Notes: generated by a model from the sequence alone, not told the origin. Shown: positions 3,510 through 32,775, counted from the stretch's first letter. The stretch: 32,775 bases of DNA from a virus (IMGVR_UViG_2913152634_000001); one strand, 5' to 3'. Numbers and translations are program-made.

Positions 3510-5814
3510 AGCCTCCGGGCGTTTTGTCCCTCCGTCAGCATTTGCCGCAGGCACCGGTAAGACGTTTACCGGTGCTTATGCATGGAACGCGCCACGCGAG
3601 GCTGTCGGGCGCGAAAGACCCCTTACACGTGACGAGATGCGTCAGGTGCAAGGTGTTTTATCCACGATTAACCGCCTGCCTTACTTTTTGCGCTCGCTGT
3701 TTACTTCACGCTATGACTACATCCGGCGCAATAAAAGCCCGGTGCACGGGTTTTATTTCCTCACATCCACTTTTCAGCGTCGTTTATGGCCGCGCATTGA
3801 GCGTGTGAATCAGCGCCATGAAATGAACACCGACGCGTCGTTGCTGTTTCTGGCAGAGCGTGACCACTATGCGCGCCTGCCTGGAATGAATGACAAGGAG
3901 CTGAAAAAGTTTGCCGCCCGTATCTCATCGCAGCTTTTCATAATGTATGAGGAACTCTGCGATGCCTGGGTGGATGCGCATGGCGAGAAAGAATCACTGT
4001 TTACGGATGAGGCGCAGGCTCACCTGTATGGTCATGTTGCTGGCGCTGCACGTGCTTTCAATATTTCCCCGCTCTACTGGAAAAAATACCGTAAAGGGCA
4101 GATGACCACGAGGCAGGCATATTCTTCCATTGCCCGTCTGTTTAACGATGAGTGGTGGACTCATCAGCTTAAAGGCCAGCGTATGCGCTGGCATGAGGCG
4201 TTACTGATTGCTGTCGGGGAGGTGAATAAAGACCGTTCTCCTTATGCCAGCAAACATGCCATTCGTGATGTACGTGCACGCCGCCAGGCAAATCTGGAAT
4301 TTCTTAAATCGTGTGACCTTGAAAACAGGGAAACCGGCGAGCGCATCGACCTTATCAGTAAGGTGATGGGCAGTATTTCTAATCCTGAAATTCGCCGGAT
4401 GGAGCTGATGAACACCATTGCTGGCATTGAGCGTTACGCCGCCGCAGAGGGTGATGTGGGGATGTTTATCACGCTGACCGCGCCGTCAAAGTATCACCCG
4501 ACACGTCAGGTCGGAAAAGGCGAAAGTAAAACCGTCCAGCTAAATCACGGCTGGAACGATGAGGCATTTAATCCAAAGGATGCGCAGCGTTATCTCTGCC
4601 ATATCTGGAGCCTGATGCGCACGGCATTCAAGGATAATGATTTACAGGTCTACGGTTTGCGTGTCGTCGAGCCACACCACGACGGAACGCCGCACTGGCA
4701 TATGATGCTTTTTTGTAATCCACGCCAGCGTAACCAGATTATTGAAATCATGCGTCGCTACGCGCTCAAAGAGGATGGCGACGAAAGAGGAGCTGCGCGA
4801 AACCGTTTTCAGGCAAAACACCTTAACCGGGGCGGTGCTGCGGGGTATATCGCGAAATACATCTCAAAAAACATCGATGGCTATGCACTGGATGGTCAGC
4901 TCGATAACGATACCGGCAGGCCGCTGAAAGACACTGCCGCGGCTGTTACCGCATGGGCGTCAACGTGGCGCATTCCGCAATTTAAAACGGTTGGCCTGCC
5001 GACAATGGGGGCTTACCGTGAACTACGCAAATTGCCGCGCGGCGTCAGCATTGCTGATGAGTTTGACGAGCGCGTCGAGGCTGCACGCGCCGCCGCAGAC
5101 AGTGGTGATTTTGCGTTGTATATCAGCGCGCAGGGTGGGGCAAATGTCCCGCGCGATCGTCAGACTGTCAGGGTCGCCCGTAGCCCGTCGGATGACGTTA
5201 ACGAGTACGAGGAAGAAGTCGAGAGAGTGATCGGCATTTACGCGCCGCATCTCGGCGCGCGTCATATTCATATCACCAGAACGACGGACTGGCGCATTGT
5301 GCCGAAAGTTCCGGTCGTTGAGCCTTTGACTTTAAAAAGCGGCATCGCCGCGCCTCGGAGTCCTGTCAATAACTGTGGAAAGCTCACCGGTGGTGATACT
5401 TCGTTATCGGCTCCCACACCGACTGAGCACGCCGCAGCAGTGCTTAATCTGGTTGATGAGGGTGTCATCGAATGGAGTGACCCGGAGGTCGTGAAGGCGC
5501 TCAGGGGCGCATTAAAACACAACCTGAGAACACCAAATCGTCAGCAAAGAAACGGAAGCCCGTTAAAACCATATGAAATGGCACCATCGGCCAGACTGAC
5601 CAGGTCGGAACGAATGCAAATTACCCGTATCCGTGTTGACCTTGCTCAAAAGGGTATCAGGCCGCAGCGATGGGAGCTCGAAGTGTTGGCACGAGGCGCT
5701 ACTGTTAGTTATGAGGGACAAAATTTTGCATTCACGGATAGCCATGACTGGAGTGGTTTTGCTGAACACTTGTGTAAGTTCACAGAGATATTGCAATTGC
5801 CTCCGGATAAGTAA
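3499..5814 (+). CDS. A: replication initiation protein A (rolling-circle nicking endonuclease)
   Basis: Large early ORF; start placed at the ATG at 3499 (MAVKASGRFVPPSAFAAGTGK, as I recall P2 gpA begins), giving 771 aa. The track ORF extends upstream to 3457. Confidence 0.9.
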   Translation: MAVKASGRFVPPSAFAAGTGKTFTGAYAWNAPREAVGRERPLTRDEMRQVQGVLSTINRLPYFLRSLFTSRYDYIRRNKSPVHGFYFLTSTFQRRLWPRIERVNQRHEMNTDASLLFLAERDHYARLPGMNDKELKKFAARISSQLFIMYEELCDAWVDAHGEKESLFTDEAQAHLYGHVAGAARAFNISPLYWKKYRKGQMTTRQAYSSIARLFNDEWWTHQLKGQRMRWHEALLIAVGEVNKDRSPYASKHAIRDVRARRQANLEFLKSCDLENRETGERIDLISKVMGSISNPEIRRMELMNTIAGIERYAAAEGDVGMFITLTAPSKYHPTRQVGKGESKTVQLNHGWNDEAFNPKDAQRYLCHIWSLMRTAFKDNDLQVYGLRVVEPHHDGTPHWHMMLFCNPRQRNQIIEIMRRYALKEDGDERGAARNRFQAKHLNRGGAAGYIAKYISKNIDGYALDGQLDNDTGRPLKDTAAAVTAWASTWRIPQFKTVGLPTMGAYRELRKLPRGVSIADEFDERVEAARAAADSGDFALYISAQGGANVPRDRQTVRVARSPSDDVNEYEEEVERVIGIYAPHLGARHIHITRTTDWRIVPKVPVVEPLTLKSGIAAPRSPVNNCGKLTGGDTSLSAPTPTEHAAAVLNLVDEGVIEWSDPEVVKALRGALKHNLRTPNRQQRNGSPLKPYEMAPSARLTRSERMQITRIRVDLAQKGIRPQRWELEVLARGATVSYEGQNFAFTDSHDWSGFAEHLCKFTEILQLPPDK

Positions 5815-5828
5815 GGGGAGATTGCACT

Positions 5829-6875
5829 ATGCAAATGCAGCATCTGATGGTTGGCTATCCTAAGTACTACCAAACGGCCGATTATGCGTTGAGGCTTTCA
5901 GTGATGGCTGATATAGCAACAATGAGAATGAAGGCTCTGCACTTCTGGGATAAACACGGTATTTCTGCAGCTTCTGAAGCCTTTGGCGTGTCCTGCCGCA
6001 CGCTTTACTGGTGGCGTCAGTTACTGAACAAGGAAGGACCTGAGGGGCTAATCCCGCACAGTAAGGCACCTCTGGTGCGACGAAAAAAACACTGGCATCC
6101 CGATGTGCTGAAAGAGATTCGACGCCTCAGGACAGAGCTGCCGAACCTCGGTAAAGAGCAGATTTTTGTTCGCCTGAAGCCCTGGTGCGAACAGCGCTAT
6201 CTGGCCTGTCCGAGTGTTTCCACCATCGGCAGAATGATCGCTGCCGCACATGATAAAATGCGGATGATACCTGTGCGTCTGGGATCGCGGGGGAAGGCAC
6301 TGCTTGTCAAAAAGCGGTCTGCCAAACCCCGCAGGCCAAAGCACTACCGCCCGGTAAAGACAGGTGAGCTCATTGGGATGGACGCCATTGAGCTCAGAAT
6401 GGGCGAACTGCGTCGCTATGTCATCACCATGATCGACGAATGCAGCAATTACGCGCTGGCACTGGCTGTGCCGTCACTCAACAGTGATATCGTCAATCAC
6501 TTCTTCAGCCGCGCAGCCCGGTTGTTCCCGGTCGGTATCAGCCAGATAATCACAGATAACGGAAAAGAGTTCCTGGGAAACTTCGACAAAACGCTGCAGG
6601 AAGCCGCTATCAAACACCTCTGGACCTATCCCTACACGCCAAAAATGAACGCTATCTGTGAACGTTTTAACCGGACGTTAAGAGAGCAGTTTATTGAATT
6701 TAATGAGATTTTACTCTTTGAAGATCTGGCGCTATTTAACCAGAAGCTGGCGGAATATCTGGTGCTGTATAACAGCAAAAGACCCCACAAGGCGCTCGCA
6801 CTAATGACGCCCGTGGAATATATTTTAAAAGAGAATAAAAATTGCAATATGTGGTGGACCCATACAACACTTTGA
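5829..6875 (+). CDS. DDE integrase-core (rve) transposase-like protein with N-terminal helix-turn-helix, IS481-like architecture
   Basis: 348-aa single ORF: N-terminal helix-turn-helix-like segment (GVSCRTLYWWRQ) and a DDE triad (GMDAIE ... ITDNGKEF ... NAICERFNRTLREQF). Strong Shine-Dalgarno AAGGGGAG at 5815-5822, immediately after the A stop. Not a gene of canonical P2. Confidence 0.75.
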   Translation: MQMQHLMVGYPKYYQTADYALRLSVMADIATMRMKALHFWDKHGISAASEAFGVSCRTLYWWRQLLNKEGPEGLIPHSKAPLVRRKKHWHPDVLKEIRRLRTELPNLGKEQIFVRLKPWCEQRYLACPSVSTIGRMIAAAHDKMRMIPVRLGSRGKALLVKKRSAKPRRPKHYRPVKTGELIGMDAIELRMGELRRYVITMIDECSNYALALAVPSLNSDIVNHFFSRAARLFPVGISQIITDNGKEFLGNFDKTLQEAAIKHLWTYPYTPKMNAICERFNRTLREQFIEFNEILLFEDLALFNQKLAEYLVLYNSKRPHKALALMTPVEYILKENKNCNMWWTHTTL

Positions 6876-7118: not shown

Positions 7119-8867
7119 CTAAGCGGTAGTGTCTTCTATATTCTTTTTCTCTTCATACATTTTATTAAAATGTGAAATATCTCCCATAAGTCTAAATATC
7201 TCTTTAAATTGTGTGATGTATATGTCGGGTGTTATTTCACCCATATCTGTTATGTTTATCGAATCTGAGTGTGAACCTCTATTTATATATCTATAGAAAG
7301 CCTTGAAATTACTATTGCTTTCATTTTGTGCAAGCCTGTTCAATTCATCTTGTAACTCGTTAGTTTTATGAACAAATGCAAAGTAATATTCTAAGATGTT
7401 TCTCATTGTATTAGGGATAACTACATTGTGAACTTTTCCATCTCTGGCATCCTTGAGTATTTGCCATAAAGATTGATATTCATTTTGCAAACTATCTCTG
7501 CTGATGTTAGAAAAAGAACTATGTAGGTTTTTTGTTATTCTAAAAAGCTGATAGGTGCTATTGAATTTCCTTTCTGAAATTGGAGCTAACTTTATTAGCT
7601 CATGAAAAAAATATAGATTATGAGTGAGGATTATCACTTTATTAGCAGAAGTGAAAATGTCATAGTGAATCATCGATGCTATATCATAGATATAGTTCTG
7701 AGAGAGACTTGAAATAGGATCGTCAATGACGATTAAACTGTCTCGGTTGTCGAATTCATCTGTGTTTGTTTGTCCCTTACAATATTCAATAAAATAGAGA
7801 AATGTAATGAGAGTTTTTTCACCTTCGCTAAGAGATCTATATACATTTTTACTTGGTGTATTATCTGAGCGAACTATAACGAAACTATTTTTTATGGTTG
7901 GATGTTTATCAATGTAGAAACAGGTAATGCCAAGGTTTTTTAATTTTGAGTTTATCGAGGAGATTGTTGTGTCGATATTGGATGTTTTATTTCTTAATTC
8001 CTTTATTTCATCATCAGTGTGTTTGATTTCTTTGTTAATAGAATCAATGCTTTCTTCGAGACTCTTGATAATGATGTCGTTTTCGGCTTGAATTTTCTCT
8101 AAAACCTCAAAGTCTGTATTGCGGTAGTTTCTCAATGCTCCCCAAAACTGATTTTTTATTTTATCTTGAGTAAGGTTAAATTGTTTTACCTTTTCATTAA
8201 GGTCATTAATTCTAGAGTTATATTGTTTTATGTCTTTTAGAAGAGATTCCTCAATATCTTTATCTTTATCAAGAGTTACGCTGAGTGACGGGTTTTGTAT
8301 CTTGTTATTAATTAACTCAATGTTACTTTTTAGCATTTTCTCAAGGGAAGAAATGTGAGCAAGACTAGTTTTTCTTTCTTCAATTGAGATTGCTGTACAG
8401 TCATTTAACTGTGTTTTTAGTAATTGAAGTTGTTCTTGAGTAGTTAATTCATAAATATATTTTAATTTTTCAATTGATGTTATTTTCTGAGCGTAGCTCT
8501 CATCAAAAATTTGCTCGAGCGCCTCTGTGAATTTATCATCAATGGTTTCTTTTTGACAAAAAGGGCAAATGTCGCCAACTAAATAATTTTCTTTACCTTT
8601 TTTAACCCAATCGAGATTCTGAAGCTTTTTGATTGTTTCTGATAGATAGCTATTGCTAGAATCAATGACAGGAGTCTTTAATAAATTTTCATCATCAAAA
8701 GAAATAGGGTAAGGATTATATGGAGATATTGTTTGTATGGTGGTGTTTTTATGATTCAATAACTCTCTGTAGTCAGTTAATAATTGATTTAAATCTATAT
8801 CAGGTAATCTAATAGAAGACTTTACCTTTGTGAAAAGGTTTCTTTTATTCTTAAGGTACCCTGCCAT
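7119..8867 (-). CDS. C-terminal fragment of a frameshift-split RloC/PrrC-like ABC ATPase with putative nuclease domain
   Basis: 582-aa ORF in a strongly AT-rich island. Contains CPFC (CxxC) in a Lys/Glu-rich coiled-coil-like region, ABC signature-like SLSEGEK, Walker B SLIVIDDP, H-loop IILTHN, then a C-terminal domain with RNILE (Arg-x3-Glu) and downstream His. No Walker A in this fragment. The reading frame stays open upstream of the ATG to a stop at 8988-8990. Confidence 0.7.
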   Translation of the reverse strand: MAGYLKNKRNLFTKVKSSIRLPDIDLNQLLTDYRELLNHKNTTIQTISPYNPYPISFDDENLLKTPVIDSSNSYLSETIKKLQNLDWVKKGKENYLVGDICPFCQKETIDDKFTEALEQIFDESYAQKITSIEKLKYIYELTTQEQLQLLKTQLNDCTAISIEERKTSLAHISSLEKMLKSNIELINNKIQNPSLSVTLDKDKDIEESLLKDIKQYNSRINDLNEKVKQFNLTQDKIKNQFWGALRNYRNTDFEVLEKIQAENDIIIKSLEESIDSINKEIKHTDDEIKELRNKTSNIDTTISSINSKLKNLGITCFYIDKHPTIKNSFVIVRSDNTPSKNVYRSLSEGEKTLITFLYFIEYCKGQTNTDEFDNRDSLIVIDDPISSLSQNYIYDIASMIHYDIFTSANKVIILTHNLYFFHELIKLAPISERKFNSTYQLFRITKNLHSSFSNISRDSLQNEYQSLWQILKDARDGKVHNVVIPNTMRNILEYYFAFVHKTNELQDELNRLAQNESNSNFKAFYRYINRGSHSDSINITDMGEITPDIYITQFKEIFRLMGDISHFNKMYEEKKNIEDTTA

Positions 8868-8955
8868 TAATGAGTTGACATCAGAGTTTCTTATGTATTC
8901 GGTATTTAACCATATTGATTCAGTACAACTTGTTTCTGCATCATGATTGCGGTCT

Positions 8956-9327
8956 TTAATTTTTTTGATAATTTGTTTTTGTTGCCTCTAGTTTTATTTT
9001 TAATGTTTTAACTATTTCTCTTTTCTTACTTATCTCTTTTTCGATCTCGGTATTTTCTTTGCTTAATGTAAAAATCCCTTTTTGAACATCTTTATCAAAG
9101 AAGTTGTCTTCAATGAACTTTGTATTATAAACCAATGGACGATAGTTATTAATGTTTGTGCAGCGGCAGTCCCTATAGTCATCGTCTGCTGGATTATAGA
9201 AAAAATTTGATATGGTAGATTTCCCAGCTCCGTTTTGCCCGTAAAGGATATTTATTCTTTTTTCGAGGGATATTTTCGTATATTTATTTTTGTCGTAGCT
9301 TGTTACATTTTTTAGACTAAGTTCCAT
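8956..9327 (-). CDS. N-terminal fragment (Walker A P-loop) of the same split ABC ATPase gene
   Basis: 123-aa ORF with Walker A YGQNGAGKST at residues 29-38; it ends in a homopolymer tract (7 T on the plus strand, 8960-8966) where the downstream 582-aa frame is already open. The two ORFs are in different frames, consistent with one gene split by a 1-nt indel. Confidence 0.7.
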   Translation of the reverse strand: MELSLKNVTSYDKNKYTKISLEKRINILYGQNGAGKSTISNFFYNPADDDYRDCRCTNINNYRPLVYNTKFIEDNFFDKDVQKGIFTLSKENTEIEKEISKKREIVKTLKIKLEATKTNYQKN

Positions 9328-21429: not shown

Positions 21430-23358
21430 ATGAGCACAAAATTCAAAACCGTTATCACCACTGCCGGTGCAGCAAAGCTGGCAGCGGCAACCGCACCGGG
21501 AGGGCGGAAGGTCAACATTACCACGATGGCCGTCGGGGATGGCGGTGGTAAATTGCCTGTCCCGGATGCCGGACAGACCGGGCTTATCCATGAAGTCTGG
21601 CGACATGCGCTGAACAAAATCAGCCAGGACAAACGAAACAGTAATTATATTATCGCAGAGCTGGTTATTCCGCCGGAGGTGGGCGGTTTCTGGATGCGTG
21701 AGCTTGGCCTGTACGATGATGCGGGAACGTTAATTGCCGTGGCGAACATGGCCGAAAGCTATAAGCCAGCCCTTGCCGAAGGCTCAGGACGTTCGCAGAC
21801 CTGTCGCATGGTCATCATCGTCAGCAGTGTGGCCTCAGTGGAGCTGACCATTGACACCACAACGGTGATGGCGACGCAGGATTACGTTGATGACAAAATT
21901 GCAGAGCACGAACAGTCACGACGTCACCCTGACGCCTCGCTGACCGCAAAAGGTTTTACTCAGTTAAGCAGTGCGACCAACAGTACGTCTGAAACACTGG
22001 CTGCAACGCCGAAAGCGGTTAAGGCCGCATATGACCTGGCTAACGGGAAATATACCGCACAGGACGCTACCACAGCGCGAAAAGGTCTTGTCCAGCTCAG
22101 TAGTGCCACCAACAGCACGTCTGAAACGCTCGCCGCAACACCAAAAGCGGTAAAAGCAGCATATGACCTGGCTAACGGGAAATATACCGCACAGGACGCT
22201 ACCACAGCGCGAAAAGGTCTTGTCCAGCTCAGTAGTGCCACCAACAGCACGTCTGAAACGCTCGCCGCAACACCAAAAGCGGTAAAAGCAGCATATGACC
22301 TGGCTAACGGGAAATATACCGCACAGGACGCCACCACAGCGCGAAAAGGCCTTGTCCAGCTCAGTAGCGCCACCAACAGTGATTCTGAAACGCTGGCCGC
22401 AACACCAAAAGCAGTGAAGTCTGCCTATGACAATGCTGAAAAACGTCTTCAGAAAGATCAGAACGGTGCGGATATTCCGGGAAAGGATACCTTCACGAAA
22501 AATATCGGTGCCTGTCGTGCTTATAGTGGCGCTTTGAGCACTGAAGCCGGAAACTGGACAACCGCGCAGTTTATTGAATGGCTGGATTCCCGTGGTGCAT
22601 TTAATCATCCGTACTGGATGTGCAAATGTTCATGGTCATACGGCAATAATAAAATTATTACCGATACTGGCTGTGGAACTATTCATCTTGCAGGTTGCGT
22701 TATTGAGGTTATGGGTAATAAAGGTGCCATGACCATCCGTGTAACAACACCAAGCACTTCCACCGGAGGCGGCACCACTAACGCTCAATTCACTTATATT
22801 AATCATGGTGATGCTTATGCCCCCGGCTGGCGACGAGACTACAACACGAAAAACCAGCAGCCTGCATTTGCTTTAGGGCAAACAGGAAGCAGGGTTGCAA
22901 ATGATAAAGCTGTTGGCTGGAACTGGAATAGCGGTGTTTATGATGCAGATATCAGCGGTGCATCGACATTAATCCTCCACTTCAATATGAATGCGGGGAG
23001 TTGCCCTGCCGTACAGTTCCGTGTGAATTATAAGAACGGCGGTATTTTTTATCGTTCAGCACGTGATGGTTATGGATTTGAGGCTGACTGGTCAGAGTTT
23101 TACACCACAACCCGCAAACCCTCTGCGGGAGATGTTGGTGCATATACCAAAGCTGAATCGGATTCTCGCTATGTACGAGATATTCGCCTGGGCACACGTG
23201 TTGTTCAGACTATGCAAAAAGGTGTGATGTATGAAAAATCAGGCCATGTAATTACAGGGCTTGGTATTGTCGGTGAAGTCGATGGTGATGACCCCGCAGT
23301 ATTCAGACCAATACAAAAATACATCAATGGCACATGGTATAACGTCGCACAGGTGTAA
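21430..23358 (+). CDS. H: tail fibre protein H with internal tandem fibre repeats
   Basis: 642-aa ORF after I; contains 3.6 tandem copies of a 44-aa unit (QLSSATNSTSETLAATPKAVKAAYDLANGKYTAQDATTARKGLV), a phage tail-fibre repeat; divergent, more AT-rich C-terminal domain. Confidence 0.85.
   Translation: MSTKFKTVITTAGAAKLAAATAPGGRKVNITTMAVGDGGGKLPVPDAGQTGLIHEVWRHALNKISQDKRNSNYIIAELVIPPEVGGFWMRELGLYDDAGTLIAVANMAESYKPALAEGSGRSQTCRMVIIVSSVASVELTIDTTTVMATQDYVDDKIAEHEQSRRHPDASLTAKGFTQLSSATNSTSETLAATPKAVKAAYDLANGKYTAQDATTARKGLVQLSSATNSTSETLAATPKAVKAAYDLANGKYTAQDATTARKGLVQLSSATNSTSETLAATPKAVKAAYDLANGKYTAQDATTARKGLVQLSSATNSDSETLAATPKAVKSAYDNAEKRLQKDQNGADIPGKDTFTKNIGACRAYSGALSTEAGNWTTAQFIEWLDSRGAFNHPYWMCKCSWSYGNNKIITDTGCGTIHLAGCVIEVMGNKGAMTIRVTTPSTSTGGGTTNAQFTYINHGDAYAPGWRRDYNTKNQQPAFALGQTGSRVANDKAVGWNWNSGVYDADISGASTLILHFNMNAGSCPAVQFRVNYKNGGIFYRSARDGYGFEADWSEFYTTTRKPSAGDVGAYTKAESDSRYVRDIRLGTRVVQTMQKGVMYEKSGHVITGLGIVGEVDGDDPAVFRPIQKYINGTWYNVAQV
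21961..22440 (+). repeat. 132-bp tandem repeat (about 3.6 copies) inside H
   Basis: Unit starts at 21961, 22093, 22225 and 22357; copies 2 and 3 differ at only about 2 positions; copy 1 differs mainly at synonymous sites; copy 4 diverges after about 80 bp. Confidence 0.9.
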
Positions 23359-23361
23359 TTT

Positions 23362-23889
23362 ATGCAGCATTTAAAAAATATTACTGCGGGTAATCCCAAA
23401 ACTGTTGCTCAATATCAACTGACAAAAAATTTTGATGTTATTTGGTTATGGTCTGAAGACGGAAAAAACTGGTATGAGGAAGTAAGTAATTTTCAGGAAG
23501 ACACGATAAAGATTGTTTACGACGCGAATAATATAATTGTCGGCATCACCAGAGATGCTTCAACGCTTAACCCTGAAGGTTTTAGCGTTGTCGAGGTTCC
23601 TGATATTACCGCCAACCGACGTGCTGATGACTCAGGTAAATGGATGTTTAAGGATGGTGCCGTGATTAAGCGGATTTATACGGCAGACGAACAGCAGCAA
23701 CTGGCAGAATCACAAAAGGCAACTTTGCTTTCCGAAGCCGAATCCGTGATTGTGCCGCTGGAGCGCGCTGTCAGGCTGAATATGGCAACAGATGAGGAGC
23801 GTAGCCGACTGGATGCATGGGAGCGTTACAGCGTTCTGGTCAGTCGTGTGGATCCTGCAAATCCTGAATGGCCGGAAATGCCGCAATAA
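23362..23889 (+). CDS. G: tail fibre assembly chaperone
   Basis: 175-aa ORF immediately after H; P2 gpG size and position. Confidence 0.85.
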
Positions 23890-24110
23890 GTTGTATGAGC
23901 TCTGGTGTGAGCTTACATATCTATGGCACAGAGTAAAGCCTAATCTGACAGGCCGCTCTGTGTCTGGAGTAGATTTTAGTAAAGCATTATTTTATTAGTG
24001 CAAATTCTAATCAATACATTTTATGTATATGATATCCTGCGGACTTTAATGACTTGGTTTAGGCTAACCAGATAACACTGAAGGAATATTTTTGATAATT
24101 AAGGTGCGGT

Positions 24111-24704
24111 ATGTTTACTAAGCGACGATTAAAAAATATTAATTGGGAGGCAAGTTCAGTGATTCTTGCTATGGTTCTCTTTATTGGAAATATATTTTAT
24201 ACGAATCATCGTGATGATATAAGCATGGAGGCTGAGAGAGACAGTATCAGAACAATGTTTGCATATGAAATCGCTAATAACCATCGCGCTCTCACTTTTC
24301 TTGATAAAACGAGAAATATTGGCTTTGACGAAAATTCGGAGCATTTTGTTGGCGAGCCTTTTGCCATTAATGTCAAATCATTAGGAGGGCCTCGCTTACA
24401 GATTGCATTAAACCAGACTGATAAAGTTTTTAAAGCCTACTTCAGTGAATTAAGTAAACTTGATAAAGAGGATGTTACTCTTCTTATGGACTATTACCAT
24501 GAGCAAAGCATCCTGCTGGAGTGTGTAAAATCTACGTTACAGAAGATGAAAAGTAGTAATGATATTAAAGTTGATATTGATGGTTACTTATTAGAAGAAC
24601 ACTTCATGAATGAGTTTAATCTTTCTAATATTTTGCTTAAACGCTATAGCCATTTGTTGTCACAACACCCAAAAAAACCTGAAACAAAAGATTTACATAA
24701 TTGA
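24111..24704 (+). CDS. orphan membrane-anchored protein in the Z/fun-position moron island
   Basis: 197-aa ORF with Shine-Dalgarno AAGGTG; one N-terminal hydrophobic helix (SSVILAMVLFIGNIFY) then a soluble domain; AT-rich relative to the flanking G and FI genes; no motif recognised. Confidence 0.7.
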   Translation: MFTKRRLKNINWEASSVILAMVLFIGNIFYTNHRDDISMEAERDSIRTMFAYEIANNHRALTFLDKTRNIGFDENSEHFVGEPFAINVKSLGGPRLQIALNQTDKVFKAYFSELSKLDKEDVTLLMDYYHEQSILLECVKSTLQKMKSSNDIKVDIDGYLLEEHFMNEFNLSNILLKRYSHLLSQHPKKPETKDLHN

Positions 24705-24914
24705 TGATCTGCTCATGGTTATTCATGGGGTAACTATGTTTTATATGTAATCCAACTCAGATGAATTATTGATTCTGGATAATAACCGCAGAGCGGCATA
24801 TACCCTGACAGGCAAATGTCCGCTTCTTGCTCAAAGCAGACTGTCAGATTTGATAACTTTTGGGTTATGTAAATTGTCAGTCGGAAAATGAGTGTGTACA
24901 AATCATGACAGGCG

Positions 24915-24934
24915 GGCGGATTGTCCGCCTTTTC
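24915..24934 (+). terminator. candidate intrinsic terminator after the moron gene
   Basis: GGCGGA-TTG-TCCGCC hairpin followed by TTTTCTTT. Confidence 0.4.
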
Positions 24935-25034
24935 TTTATCTGTTGTTTCATCCACTGACCAGCCAGGTCAAATAGCGTCTCATGCTCTGCACAACAGAAA
25001 ATACCACTCACCCATTAACCACGGAGTTAAACGG

Positions 25035-26225
25035 ATGAGTGACTATCATCACGGCGTGCAGGTGCTGGAGATTAACGACGGCACCCGCGTCATTTCCACC
25101 GTATCCACTGCCATTGTCGGCATGGTCTGCACGGCCAGCGATGCGGATGCGGAAACCTTTCCCCTCAATAAACCGGTGCTGATTACCAATGTGCAGAGCG
25201 CGATTGCAAAGGCCGGTAAAAAAGGCACGCTGGCGGCATCGTTGCAGGCTATCGCCGACCAGTCAAAACCGGTCACCGTTGTCGTGCGTGTGGAAGACGG
25301 CACCGGCGACGACGAGGAAACGAAACTCGCGCAGACCGTTTCCAATATCATCGGCACCACCGACGAAAACGGTCAGTACACCGGACTGAAAGCCCTGCTG
25401 GCGGCAGAGTCGGTAACCGGTGTTAAACCGCGTATTCTCGGTGTGCCGGGACTGGACACCAAAGAGGTGGCTGTTGCACTGGCATCAGTCTGTCAGAAGC
25501 TGCGCGCTTTCGGGTATATCAGCGCATGGGGCTGTAAAACCATTTCCGAGGTGAAAGCCTACCGTCAGAATTTCAGCCAGCGTGAGCTGATGGTCATCTG
25601 GCCGGATTTCCTCGCATGGGATACGGTTGCCAGTACCACCGCCACCGCGTATGCCACCGCCCGTGCGCTGGGTCTGCGTGCCAGAATCGACCAGGAGCAG
25701 GGCTGGCATAAAACGCTGTCCAACGTCGGGGTGAACGGTGTTACCGGCATCAGCGCATCTGTATTCTGGGATTTGCAGGAGTCCGGCACCGATGCTGACC
25801 TGCTGAATGAGTCAGGCGTCACAACGCTGATTCGCCGTGACGGTTTCCGCTTCTGGGGTAACCGTACCTGCTCTGATGACCCGCTGTTCCTCTTTGAAAA
25901 CTACACCCGCACCGCGCAGGTGCTGGCCGACACGATGGCTGAGGCGCACATGTGGGCGGTGGACAAGCCCATCACCGCAACGCTGATTCGCGACATCGTT
26001 GACGGCATCAATGCCAAATTCCGTGAGCTGAAAACAAACGGCTATATCGTGGATGCGACCTGCTGGTTCAGCGAAGAATCCAACGATGCGGAAACCCTCA
26101 AGGCCGGAAAACTGTATATCGACTACGACTATACCCCGGTGCCTCCTCTCGAAAACCTGACCCTGCGCCAGCGTATTACCGATAAATACCTGGCAAATCT
26201 GGTCACCTCGGTTAACAGCAATTAA
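25035..26225 (+). CDS. FI: contractile tail sheath protein
   Basis: Start taken at the ATG at 25035 (MSDYHHGVQVLEINDG), giving 396 aa, the P2 gpFI size as recalled; the track ORF extends upstream. Confidence 0.9.
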   Translation: MSDYHHGVQVLEINDGTRVISTVSTAIVGMVCTASDADAETFPLNKPVLITNVQSAIAKAGKKGTLAASLQAIADQSKPVTVVVRVEDGTGDDEETKLAQTVSNIIGTTDENGQYTGLKALLAAESVTGVKPRILGVPGLDTKEVAVALASVCQKLRAFGYISAWGCKTISEVKAYRQNFSQRELMVIWPDFLAWDTVASTTATAYATARALGLRARIDQEQGWHKTLSNVGVNGVTGISASVFWDLQESGTDADLLNESGVTTLIRRDGFRFWGNRTCSDDPLFLFENYTRTAQVLADTMAEAHMWAVDKPITATLIRDIVDGINAKFRELKTNGYIVDATCWFSEESNDAETLKAGKLYIDYDYTPVPPLENLTLRQRITDKYLANLVTSVNSN

Positions 26226-31792: not shown

Positions 31793-31872
31793 TCCTCAAT
31801 TTGCCTGCTGCTTAATGCATTGCAGATGATTTGCTTCCGTTATACTACCGTCAGTTGATAGCGGGAGTATTT

Positions 31873-32775
31873 ATGAATCAATCTTATGGACGGCTGGTCA
31901 GTCGGGCGGCGATTGCTGCGACGGCGATGGCTTCGCTGCTATTGCTGATTAAAATTTTTGCATGGTGGTATACCGGGTCGGTGAGTATTCTCGCCGCGCT
32001 GGTGGATTCGCTGGTGGATATCGGCGCGTCGTTGACGAATTTACTGGTGGTGCGATATTCCCTGCAACCTGCCGACGATAATCACTCGTTTGGTCACGGT
32101 AAAGCTGAGTCCCTCGCGGCGCTGGCGCAAAGTATGTTTATCTCCGGTTCGGCACTATTCCTGTTTTTGACGGGTATTCAACATCTGGTATCTCCAACAC
32201 CGATGACAGATCCAGGCGTCGGGGTTATCGTGACAATTGTGGCGCTAATTTGTACGATTATCCTTGTCTCGTTTCAGCGTTGGGTGGTGCGCCGGACGCA
32301 AAGCCAGGCGGTGCGGGCTGATATGCTACATTACCAGTCTGATGTTATGATGAACGGCGCAATTCTGCTGGCGCTGGGGTTGTCCTGGTACGGCTGGCAT
32401 CGCGCCGATGCTCTGTTTGCATTGGGGATCGGCATCTATATTTTATATAGCGCGTTACGCATGGGATATGAGGCGGTACAGTCATTACTGGATCGCGCAT
32501 TGCCTGATGAGGAACGGCAAGAAATTATTGATATCGTGACTTCCTGGCCGGGTGTTAGCGGCGCTCACGATCTTCGCACGCGGCAGTCAGGGCCGACCCG
32601 CTTTATTCAGATTCATTTGGAAATGGAAGACTCTCTGCCTTTGGTTCAGGCACATATGGTGGCGGATCAGGTAGAGCAGGCTATTTTACGGCGTTTTCCG
32701 GGATCGGATGTGATTATCCATCAGGACCCCTGTTCCGTCGTACCCAGGGAGGGTAAACGGTCTATGCTTTCATAA
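31873..32775 (+). CDS. fieF: cation-diffusion-facilitator ferrous-iron/zinc efflux transporter FieF (YiiP), host gene
   Basis: 300 aa from the ATG at 31873 ([54 protein letters not shown]), recognised as E. coli FieF/YiiP; the track ORF extends 14 codons upstream. The stop is at the last base of the window. Confidence 0.9.

Follow-up and report, generated by a model that had tools for sequence, protein, structure and literature searches.

A single AT-rich gene lies in the G-FI slot of a P2-like prophage

We analyzed a stretch of DNA of 32,775 nucleotides (IMGVR_UViG_2913152634_000001; the window), which as a whole is a P2-like prophage. Our subject is one gene within it, a single open reading frame (ORF) of 197 amino acids (aa) between P2 genes G and FI. 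A first-pass annotation, made from the sequence alone, had placed this gene at the position where P2 carries Z/fun, and both the ORF coordinates and the P2 record agree. The ORF is a real, selected gene, and it is a stand-alone accessory ("moron") gene of a small Enterobacterales family that is carried by mobile elements. The slot and its borders contain the following features (positions are those of the window).

23362-23889, plus strand: P2 gene G, which encodes the tail fibre assembly protein and borders the slot upstream (ORF, and RefSeq annotation of regions that are 100% and 97% identical).
23890-23950: conserved P2 backbone, forming part of what GenBank AJ512680 and AJ512683 label the "left inverted repeat" (alignment, record features, and inverted repeat I3).
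23951-23974: left boundary element GGCCGCTCTGTGTCTGGAGTAGAT, an eroded remnant of the 24-bp palindrome GTCCGCT-N10-AGCGGAC, at which homology with other cargo types stops.
23975-24110, plus strand: 5' region of the cargo, with about 73% identity to the equivalent region of the Pantoea and IncFII plasmid copies.
24028-24033, plus strand: alternative conserved TATGAT.
24072-24099, plus strand: promoter-like site ATAACA-16-GATAAT.
24101-24106, plus strand: Shine-Dalgarno sequence AAGGTG of the 197-aa gene.
24111-24704, plus strand: 197-aa ORF with an ATG start.
24714-24738, plus strand: weak terminator-like hairpin (three GC pairs) and T run just past the stop codon.
24818-24841: right boundary element GTCCGCTTCTTGCTCAAAGCAGAC, matching the palindrome at 13 of 14 arm positions; homology with the P2, P2-EC46, and P2-EC58 backbone resumes here.
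24842-24909: conserved backbone, "right inverted repeat" region.
24910-24940, plus strand: intrinsic-terminator-like hairpin AGGCGGGCGGATTGTCCGCCT and then TTTTCTTTAT (hairpin proper, 24910-24930).
24938-25035, plus strand: PF late promoter region and then the FI leader (P2 record features transferred via the alignment).
25036-26225, plus strand: P2 gene FI, which encodes the tail sheath and borders the slot downstream (true ATG at 25036).

The first-pass description of an AT-rich gene with its own Shine-Dalgarno sequence was borne out. The ORF has a GC content of 0.34 (0.31 at third codon positions), compared to 0.57 (0.58) for FI and approximately 0.57 for the backbone. To define the insert, its flanks were aligned with P2 itself and with the Z regions of P2-EC46 and P2-EC58 (GenBank AJ512680 and AJ512683), all three of which have different cargo. 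The conserved backbone runs to about position 23963 on the left and from about 24818 on the right. This leaves an insert proper of approximately 860 bp (about 23964-24822), with approximately 135 bp 5' and 115 bp 3' of the ORF. The gene resembles a moron in being an extra gene of deviant base composition (0.34 versus 0.57) amid conserved neighbors, with precise boundaries relative to P2, P2-EC46, and P2-EC58. Non-coding flanks of about 220 and 330 bp had been described, and those sizes are right (221 bp from G to the ORF and 331 bp from the ORF to FI), but most of this DNA is conserved backbone that includes the terminator and the PF promoter. It also includes the core of inverted repeat I3, in which AATCTGACAG within 23890-23950 pairs with CTGTCAGATT at 24841-24850.

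The 197-aa gene could be transcribed from ATAACA-16-GATAAT, from TATGAT, or by read-through from the late V-W-J-I-H-G operon. Promoter-like sites are not above chance in the region (two found, with 4.3 expected from shuffles). Terminator-like sites number four, with 0.8 expected. One of them is the downstream hairpin that had been noted earlier (24910-24930), which has nine pairs, six of them GC, followed by a T run. Because it is kept in P2-like phages whatever their cargo, this hairpin is a backbone feature, and it is predicted to end rightward transcription ahead of PF. The predicted binding site for the PF activator is at about 24938-24966, and PF transcription probably starts at about 25009-25011. 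An Rfam search of the region returned only sub-threshold matches, including one to the enterobacterial small RNA STnc630 (24849-24965, plus strand; 24.2 bits versus a gathering score of 55; E 0.067). The STnc630-like stretch is part of the conserved backbone that separates the right boundary element from the PF promoter, and it spans the terminator hairpin.

The gene belongs to a small family that is under purifying selection

The first-pass annotation had also called the protein an orphan, which it is not. It is a full-length match to phrog_3829 (PHROGs v4; E 7.1e-134; residues 1-197 aligned to all 197 profile positions), a profile that also matched all 20 of the diverse family members that we aligned. 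The 197-aa protein thus belongs to the phrog_3829 family, with nothing to set it apart, and the family has no assigned function. RefSeq names the protein "hypothetical protein" or "lysogenic conversion protein" (e.g., WP_032301962.1 and WP_087904160.1). The latter is a label without function or traceable experimental content; in GenBank AJ512680, "putative lysogenic conversion protein" is applied to unrelated cargo ORFs of the G-FI slot.

The 1145-bp interval between G and FI occurs at 96 to 97% identity in 13 isolated P2-like phage records, with the same protein length in the same slot. The carriers include P2_AC1, PhiR44_1, P24E6b, P24B2, P22H1, D8, 12W, and "Peduovirus P2" (OU784746/NC_070906). 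A tblastn search with a family member matched only the 13 cargo-bearing phage records. Among 5426 complete Escherichia coli genomes, the cargo alone is in 203 (about 4%) and the slot flanks are in 1615, and approximately 87% of the slot-bearing genomes do not have the cargo. Homologues with 53 to 98% identity are found in Pantoea, Salmonella, Kosakonia, Pluralibacter, and Enterobacter, and there is also a homologue in Proteus. When 1.84 billion representative proteins were searched exhaustively with a profile, there were only 30 hits at E ≤ 1e-3, with no informative fusion among them. Distant members (20 to 39% identity, 165 to 218 aa) share the same plan of a basic N terminus, one transmembrane (TM) helix, and the motif IRTxxAYEIxxN right after it. 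They have a second conserved patch around L117 and Y129.

Pairwise dN/dS values across the homologues are 0.06 to 0.20. Even the close E. coli copies show purifying selection (dN/dS of 0.20 at a dS of 0.06), and the ORF is intact in 27 of 29 IMG/VR copies. The protein cluster does contain truncated forms, among them 99-aa products on 34+6 contigs. Residues 11 to 24 (NWEAxSV..AM.LF) are invariant, which supports the upstream ATG over the internal start annotated in P2_AC1. Family copies have a GC content of 0.27 to 0.37 in every host background, with locus values of 0.33 to 0.57.

That the protein has no recognizable motif also held up. Pfam and NCBIfam scans found nothing above threshold (the single Pfam line was NCH2, E 0.031), and no PADLOC-DB 2.0.0 defence profile matched at E values up to 10. 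When 20 diverse family members were scanned against Pfam, no family recurred. A profile search of PDB sequences found no relative, and looking up the gene in the literature by accession and PHROG id turned up no paper. The locus is a textbook hotspot, and the family is catalogued but uncharacterised.

Palindromic elements bracket the cargo

The E. coli cassette and its Pantoea and plasmid copies share approximately 73% nucleotide identity over the ORF and both untranslated regions, and this homology stops at a 24-bp palindrome on either end. The same elements mark where homology between different types of P2 cargo is lost, and P2-EC46, with its two cargo genes, has a third element between these genes. 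The upstream elements have the form GTCCGCT-cTGTGCCAnG-AGCGGAC, and the downstream ones have the form GTCCGCT-yCTyGCTCAa-AGCrGAC. In the window, the left element has the same eroded form that is found in all 29 IMG/VR copies (with single-base variants in six). The right element also closes the homologous cassette in Pantoea and on the IncFII plasmid. Fold prediction gave no fold for the left element and a weak one for the right, while an intact copy is predicted to form a DNA hairpin (-8.2 kcal/mol; z -4.65). The bracketing pairs at three loci are as follows.

L002: 92-115 and 1611-1634.
L007 (Pantoea AlpA islet): 5785-5808 and 6709-6732.
L012 (Enterobacter IncFII plasmid): 5784-5807 and 6606-6629.

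An exact scan of IMG/VR with the upstream form found 109 stretches, 80 of which (L048-L127) were used for statistics. These 80 loci (826 kb) have 182 elements, compared to three in shuffled sequence, and 53 loci have at least two. The elements are strongly intergenic, and most (163 of 182) are outside long stop-free stretches, even though such stretches make up 73% of the bases. Sixteen are 66-bp junctions in which a downstream-type element, an 18-bp spacer, and an upstream-type element follow one another. There are arrays of 0.8- to 1.9-kb units, in which these bipartite junctions separate the cassettes. No P2 protein was found at 43 of the 80 loci, and so the elements are not confined to P2. 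For example, in a lambdoid (Qin/Rac-like) E. coli prophage (L157; NZ_CP029369.1), elements at about 3963, 5139/5181, and 9351 bracket hypothetical genes between a DUF977 replication-region gene and hokD.

Integron cassettes are a possible parallel. They too are single promoter-plus-gene units bounded by short imperfect palindromes, and they form arrays with an element between genes. However, here there are palindromes (24 bp, 7-10-7) at both ends rather than one attC, their arms are GTCCGCT and AGCGGAC rather than the attC core, and the elements are carried by prophages, islets, and a plasmid. An IntI integrase is absent from the vicinity; the sole integrase in the window is a P2-type phage integrase (1-1011). 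Therefore, we rejected an integron cassette as an explanation. A literature search for palindrome-flanked prophage cassettes found nothing relevant. The P2 instance of the elements was probably described by Nilsson in 2004. The boundary elements offer a concrete way into the question of how prophage hotspots exchange cargo with such precision, which recent hotspot surveys raised yet left open. For the other P2 hotspot, Rousset and colleagues speculated about cos-proximal recombination (PMC9122126).

The protein is predicted to be a membrane-anchored helical bundle

The first-pass annotation had predicted a single N-terminal TM helix. There is only one hydrophobic segment (about residues 14 to 31; Kyte-Doolittle 17-residue mean of 1.99), and it was helical in both of our AlphaFold models. 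The first of these had a predicted local distance difference test (pLDDT) value of 66. The second, which had distant homologues in its alignment, reached 82.6, with a predicted template modeling (pTM) score of 0.72 and all five of its models in agreement. A continuous helix is predicted over residues 12 to 66, with the TM segment running on into the soluble domain. It is followed by a loop with a conserved GEPFA (residues 67 to 91) and helices at residues 92 to 99, 105 to 116, 119 to 148, and 153 to 178. Thus, the structure prediction that had been recommended gave a TM helix leading into a generic four-helix bundle. The conserved motif IRTxxAYEIxxN is at residues 46 to 57. Only R47, A51, E53, I54, N57, L117, and Y129 are conserved family-wide, and no enzymatic or nucleotide-binding motif was found in the family.

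There is no signal-peptidase motif or lipobox in the 197-aa protein, so the TM helix would be a signal anchor. Topology had also been marked for checking. In 19 of the 20 family members examined, the N-terminal flank carries a net positive charge, strongly so in distant ones, and in most of them the 15 residues past the TM helix have a net charge that is neutral or negative. This charge bias favors an N-in/C-out arrangement, which we predict with moderate confidence and in which the bundle would face the periplasm. The distant members P0059, P0064, and P0068 have a C-terminal CxxxxC pair (CNNLTC, CESLSC, and CEYPGC), which would fit either a periplasmic disulfide or a metal site. The E. coli protein does not have this pair.

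Homologues are single-gene cargo in the hotspots of several element types

Apart from the P2 G-FI slot, the family gene is found as single-gene cargo in the accessory or defence hotspots of several types of element. These settings are the most informative evidence on the gene.

P4-like satellites, directly 3' of the alpha primase at the satellite end: Kosakonia oryzendophytica (L005 5989-6591), Pantoea ananatis (L008 5402-6001), and an IMG/VR stretch (L046 about 4001-4591).
P2-like phage, portal-side old/tin hotspot, adjoining the PADLOC candidate PDC-S49: IMG/VR contig 641736172_000003 (L047 590-4585).
Proteus mirabilis ATCC 29906, adjoining a putAbiC-domain protein and a P2 portal remnant: L006 3385-3812, 4046-5461, and 5992-6591.
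Salmonella lambdoid prophage, at its right end, adjoining genes for a type II methylase and endonuclease: L009.
Integrase islet, following a 1524-aa protein for which PADLOC gave a weak LmuA-like match: L013.
Pantoea AlpA islet: L007.
Enterobacter IncFII plasmid, beside IS91 and VapC: L012.

No conserved partner gene was found across these contexts. The phage with PDC-S49 has P2 Q at 48% identity and P at 46%. The Proteus-type P2-like lineage keeps the 30%-identical homologue in its portal-side hotspot, where the neighbor varies (putAbiC or PDC-S49), and the Proteus locus retains only the portal remnant. The primase-att position of P4-like satellites is a minor defence hotspot (PMC13586616). 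Family members from P2-like phages and those from P4-like satellites have approximately 64% protein identity. P2 and P4 almost never share defence genes (PMC13586616), but their sharing of this family need not mean direct exchange, because the carriers are in different host genera.

There are clear parallels with the defence cargo of P2 and P4 hotspots (PMC9122126; Moura de Sousa 2026, PMC13586616; PDC-S49 and PDC-S06). The hotspots are the same, as is the presence/absence behavior, and phrog_3829 homologues are directly beside PDC-S49, putAbiC, and a type II restriction-modification system. In contrast, the 197-aa protein has no PADLOC model and was not among the systems tested in PMC9122126 and PMC13586616.

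We also considered a link to the neighboring tail fibre allele, with the protein masking a receptor as T5 llp/oad-like proteins do. However, the cargo is not linked to that allele in E. coli phages. The H/G allele of the window is 98.4% identical in the vB_EcoM-12474II-V phages, which lack the cargo, and the cargo carriers have H/G alleles that are only 79 to 90% identical to that of the window. Therefore, this link was rejected.

A candidate superinfection-exclusion protein

The suggestion of the first-pass annotation that the protein acts in superinfection exclusion or abortive infection is plausible by analogy, and the genes neighboring the homologues strengthen it. By the same analogy, we tentatively favor a narrow-range superinfection-exclusion protein that faces the periplasm, while holding this with somewhat less than even confidence. 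The gene would have entered the G-FI slot of P2 as an 860-bp cassette of the gene with its own 5' and 3' regions. The ends of that cassette coincide with the 24-bp palindromes that also bracket other cargo and that are now eroded in E. coli. The protein would be made from the prophage or a P4-like satellite as a bitopic inner membrane protein, with its basic N-terminal tail most likely in the cytoplasm. Its TM helix would extend as a rigid stalk and lead into a periplasmic four-helix bundle of about 150 aa. The bundle might then bind a component of the incoming phage, or the inner membrane entry route that this phage uses, so that genome entry would be blocked at the inner membrane and the cell would not be killed.

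Superinfection-exclusion (Sie) factors are usually small, prophage-encoded membrane proteins that are anchored at the N terminus, such as HK97 gp15, lactococcal Sie2009, and T4 Imm/Sp. In several of them, an anchor at the N terminus is joined to an extracytoplasmic domain, and HK97 gp15 is encoded among tail genes. The 197-aa protein resembles HK97 gp15, Sie2009, T4 Imm/Sp, and P22 SieA in being the small, membrane-anchored product of a single-gene moron. Like such proteins, it is a small and non-essential membrane protein on a mobile element, as indicated by its one TM helix and its presence/absence polymorphism in the slot. We detected no sequence or fold similarity to the characterised Sie families.

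P2 Fun(Z) is the obvious precedent for the slot. It is in the same G-FI position with the same boundaries, the right one shared to the base, and it likewise serves in lysogenic conversion and is not essential. The P2 record states that Fun(Z), when cloned, blocks T5, and Fun(Z) also confers sensitivity to FUdR. However, Fun(Z) is 529 aa, it is encoded on the opposite strand, and the two genes are unrelated. P2-type records align to the flanks only (query positions 916-1145) and not to the cargo, and so we rejected a Fun(Z) homologue.

Several points weigh against an exclusion role. When challenged with a panel of lambda, T4, P1, 186cIts, CLB_P2, LF82_P8, AL505_P2, and T7, which included neither T5 nor most phage groups, an E. 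coli C lysogen of P2_AC1 showed protection against lambda and LF82_P8 alone (PMC9122126). The cloned TIR system of the other hotspot of AC1 reproduced that protection pattern (PMC9122126). The P2_AC1 copy of our gene is 97% identical, and the lysogen shows no sign of it acting on that panel. P2 hotspots carry non-defence cargo too (PMC9122126). The promoter-like matches are at chance level, and expression in the lysogen is predicted at most. Finally, the topology is predicted from charge bias, and counts of lysine and arginine by themselves do not separate the two flanks across the family.

Of the alternatives, lysogenic conversion unrelated to phages fares best, and we consider it rather unlikely. 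In this case, the protein would alter a trait of the host, for example its handling of surface polysaccharide, its tolerance of envelope stress, its sensitivity to bacteriocins, or colonisation. The RefSeq name fits, though it comes without a function and fits other readings equally well. A membrane anchor and a probably periplasmic domain would suit an envelope role, virulence and maintenance cargo also occur in P2 hotspots (PMC9122126), and the AC1 lysogen had no extra anti-phage phenotype. However, recurrence in the cargo slots of P4-like satellites and beside restriction-modification genes, putAbiC, and PDC-S49 points more to conflict between viruses, and the protein has no similarity to a known envelope-modifying family.

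The protein might instead be an abortive-infection effector. Its helical domain would sense a phage product, and it would oligomerise through the TM helix, depolarise or permeabilise the inner membrane, and kill the cell before the phage cycle ends. Of what marks such an effector, the TM helix is the one feature that can be shown. The family's neighbors suit this as they suit exclusion, but we judge it unlikely, a little more so than lysogenic conversion.

Less probable still is a role in the life cycle of the carrier itself, either in tuning lysis or in blocking progeny from re-adsorbing to or re-injecting into lysing cells, with late expression by read-through from the PV operon (V-W-J-I-H-G). 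The gene is oriented with the late tail operon, there is no convincing terminator between G and the ORF, and the architecture is like that of i-spanins, which are N-in/C-out proteins with a helical periplasmic domain. Against this, most slot-bearing genomes have no such gene, it does not follow the tail fibre allele, and it is found in P4-like satellites, a plasmid, and islets without tail or lysis genes. An i-spanin itself (Rz/LysB-like), which would be paired in a lysis cassette with an o-spanin lipoprotein gene adjacent to or embedded in its own, was rejected. The prophage already has LysB and LysC in its lysis cassette, no lipobox ORF overlaps 24111-24704 or adjoins the gene, and homologues are in elements that have no lysis genes.

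A silenced or decaying passenger with no current function here would fit the eroded boundary elements, the truncated forms, and AT-rich DNA (a typical target of H-NS silencing), but it is very improbable given purifying selection even among close E. coli copies, an ORF that is intact in nearly all copies, and an architecture kept down to 20 to 30% identity.

To return to exclusion, a broader proposal is that phrog_3829 is a new, structurally unprecedented, single-gene exclusion or defence family that faces the periplasm and is common to P2-like phages (both hotspots), P4-like satellites, lambdoid prophages, and plasmids. It would move as a cassette bracketed by little-noticed 24-bp palindromes (in arrays, 66-bp bipartite junctions), which would mark the limits of cargo in enterobacterial prophages of several kinds. 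Taken whole, this is possible but doubtful. The cargo is in about 4% of complete E. coli genomes, yet the family has no Pfam entry or structure. If the protein does exclude phages, it would add a new family to the few envelope-level exclusion factors, and it would help to explain why similar strains differ in phage susceptibility.

Other features of the prophage

The host gene fieF is at 31831-32775. The chromosomal site fieF-pfkA borders both the P2-like prophage here and the Salmonella lambdoid prophage with a 64%-identical homologue (L009 9502-11551).

The other hotspot of the prophage, at the old/tin position between A and the portal gene Q, has an insertion sequence transposase (rve/HTH; 5829-6875, plus strand) and a PDC-S06-type AAA_13 ATPase (7119-9327, minus strand). 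The ATPase frame is broken, with 123 codons from 9327 and then a 582-aa ORF (8867-7119) in another frame. This could be a pseudogene or a sequencing error. The ATPase is intact (735 aa) in E. coli PMV-1.

The region from 22500 to 23889, which encodes the C terminus of H and all of G, has a GC content of approximately 0.45. The tail fibre gene H also has a 132-bp (44-aa) tandem repeat at 21970-22412 (3.4 copies, 94% identity). H varies in length among related prophages, from 642 aa here to 681 aa in MS1494 and 720 aa in PMV-1.

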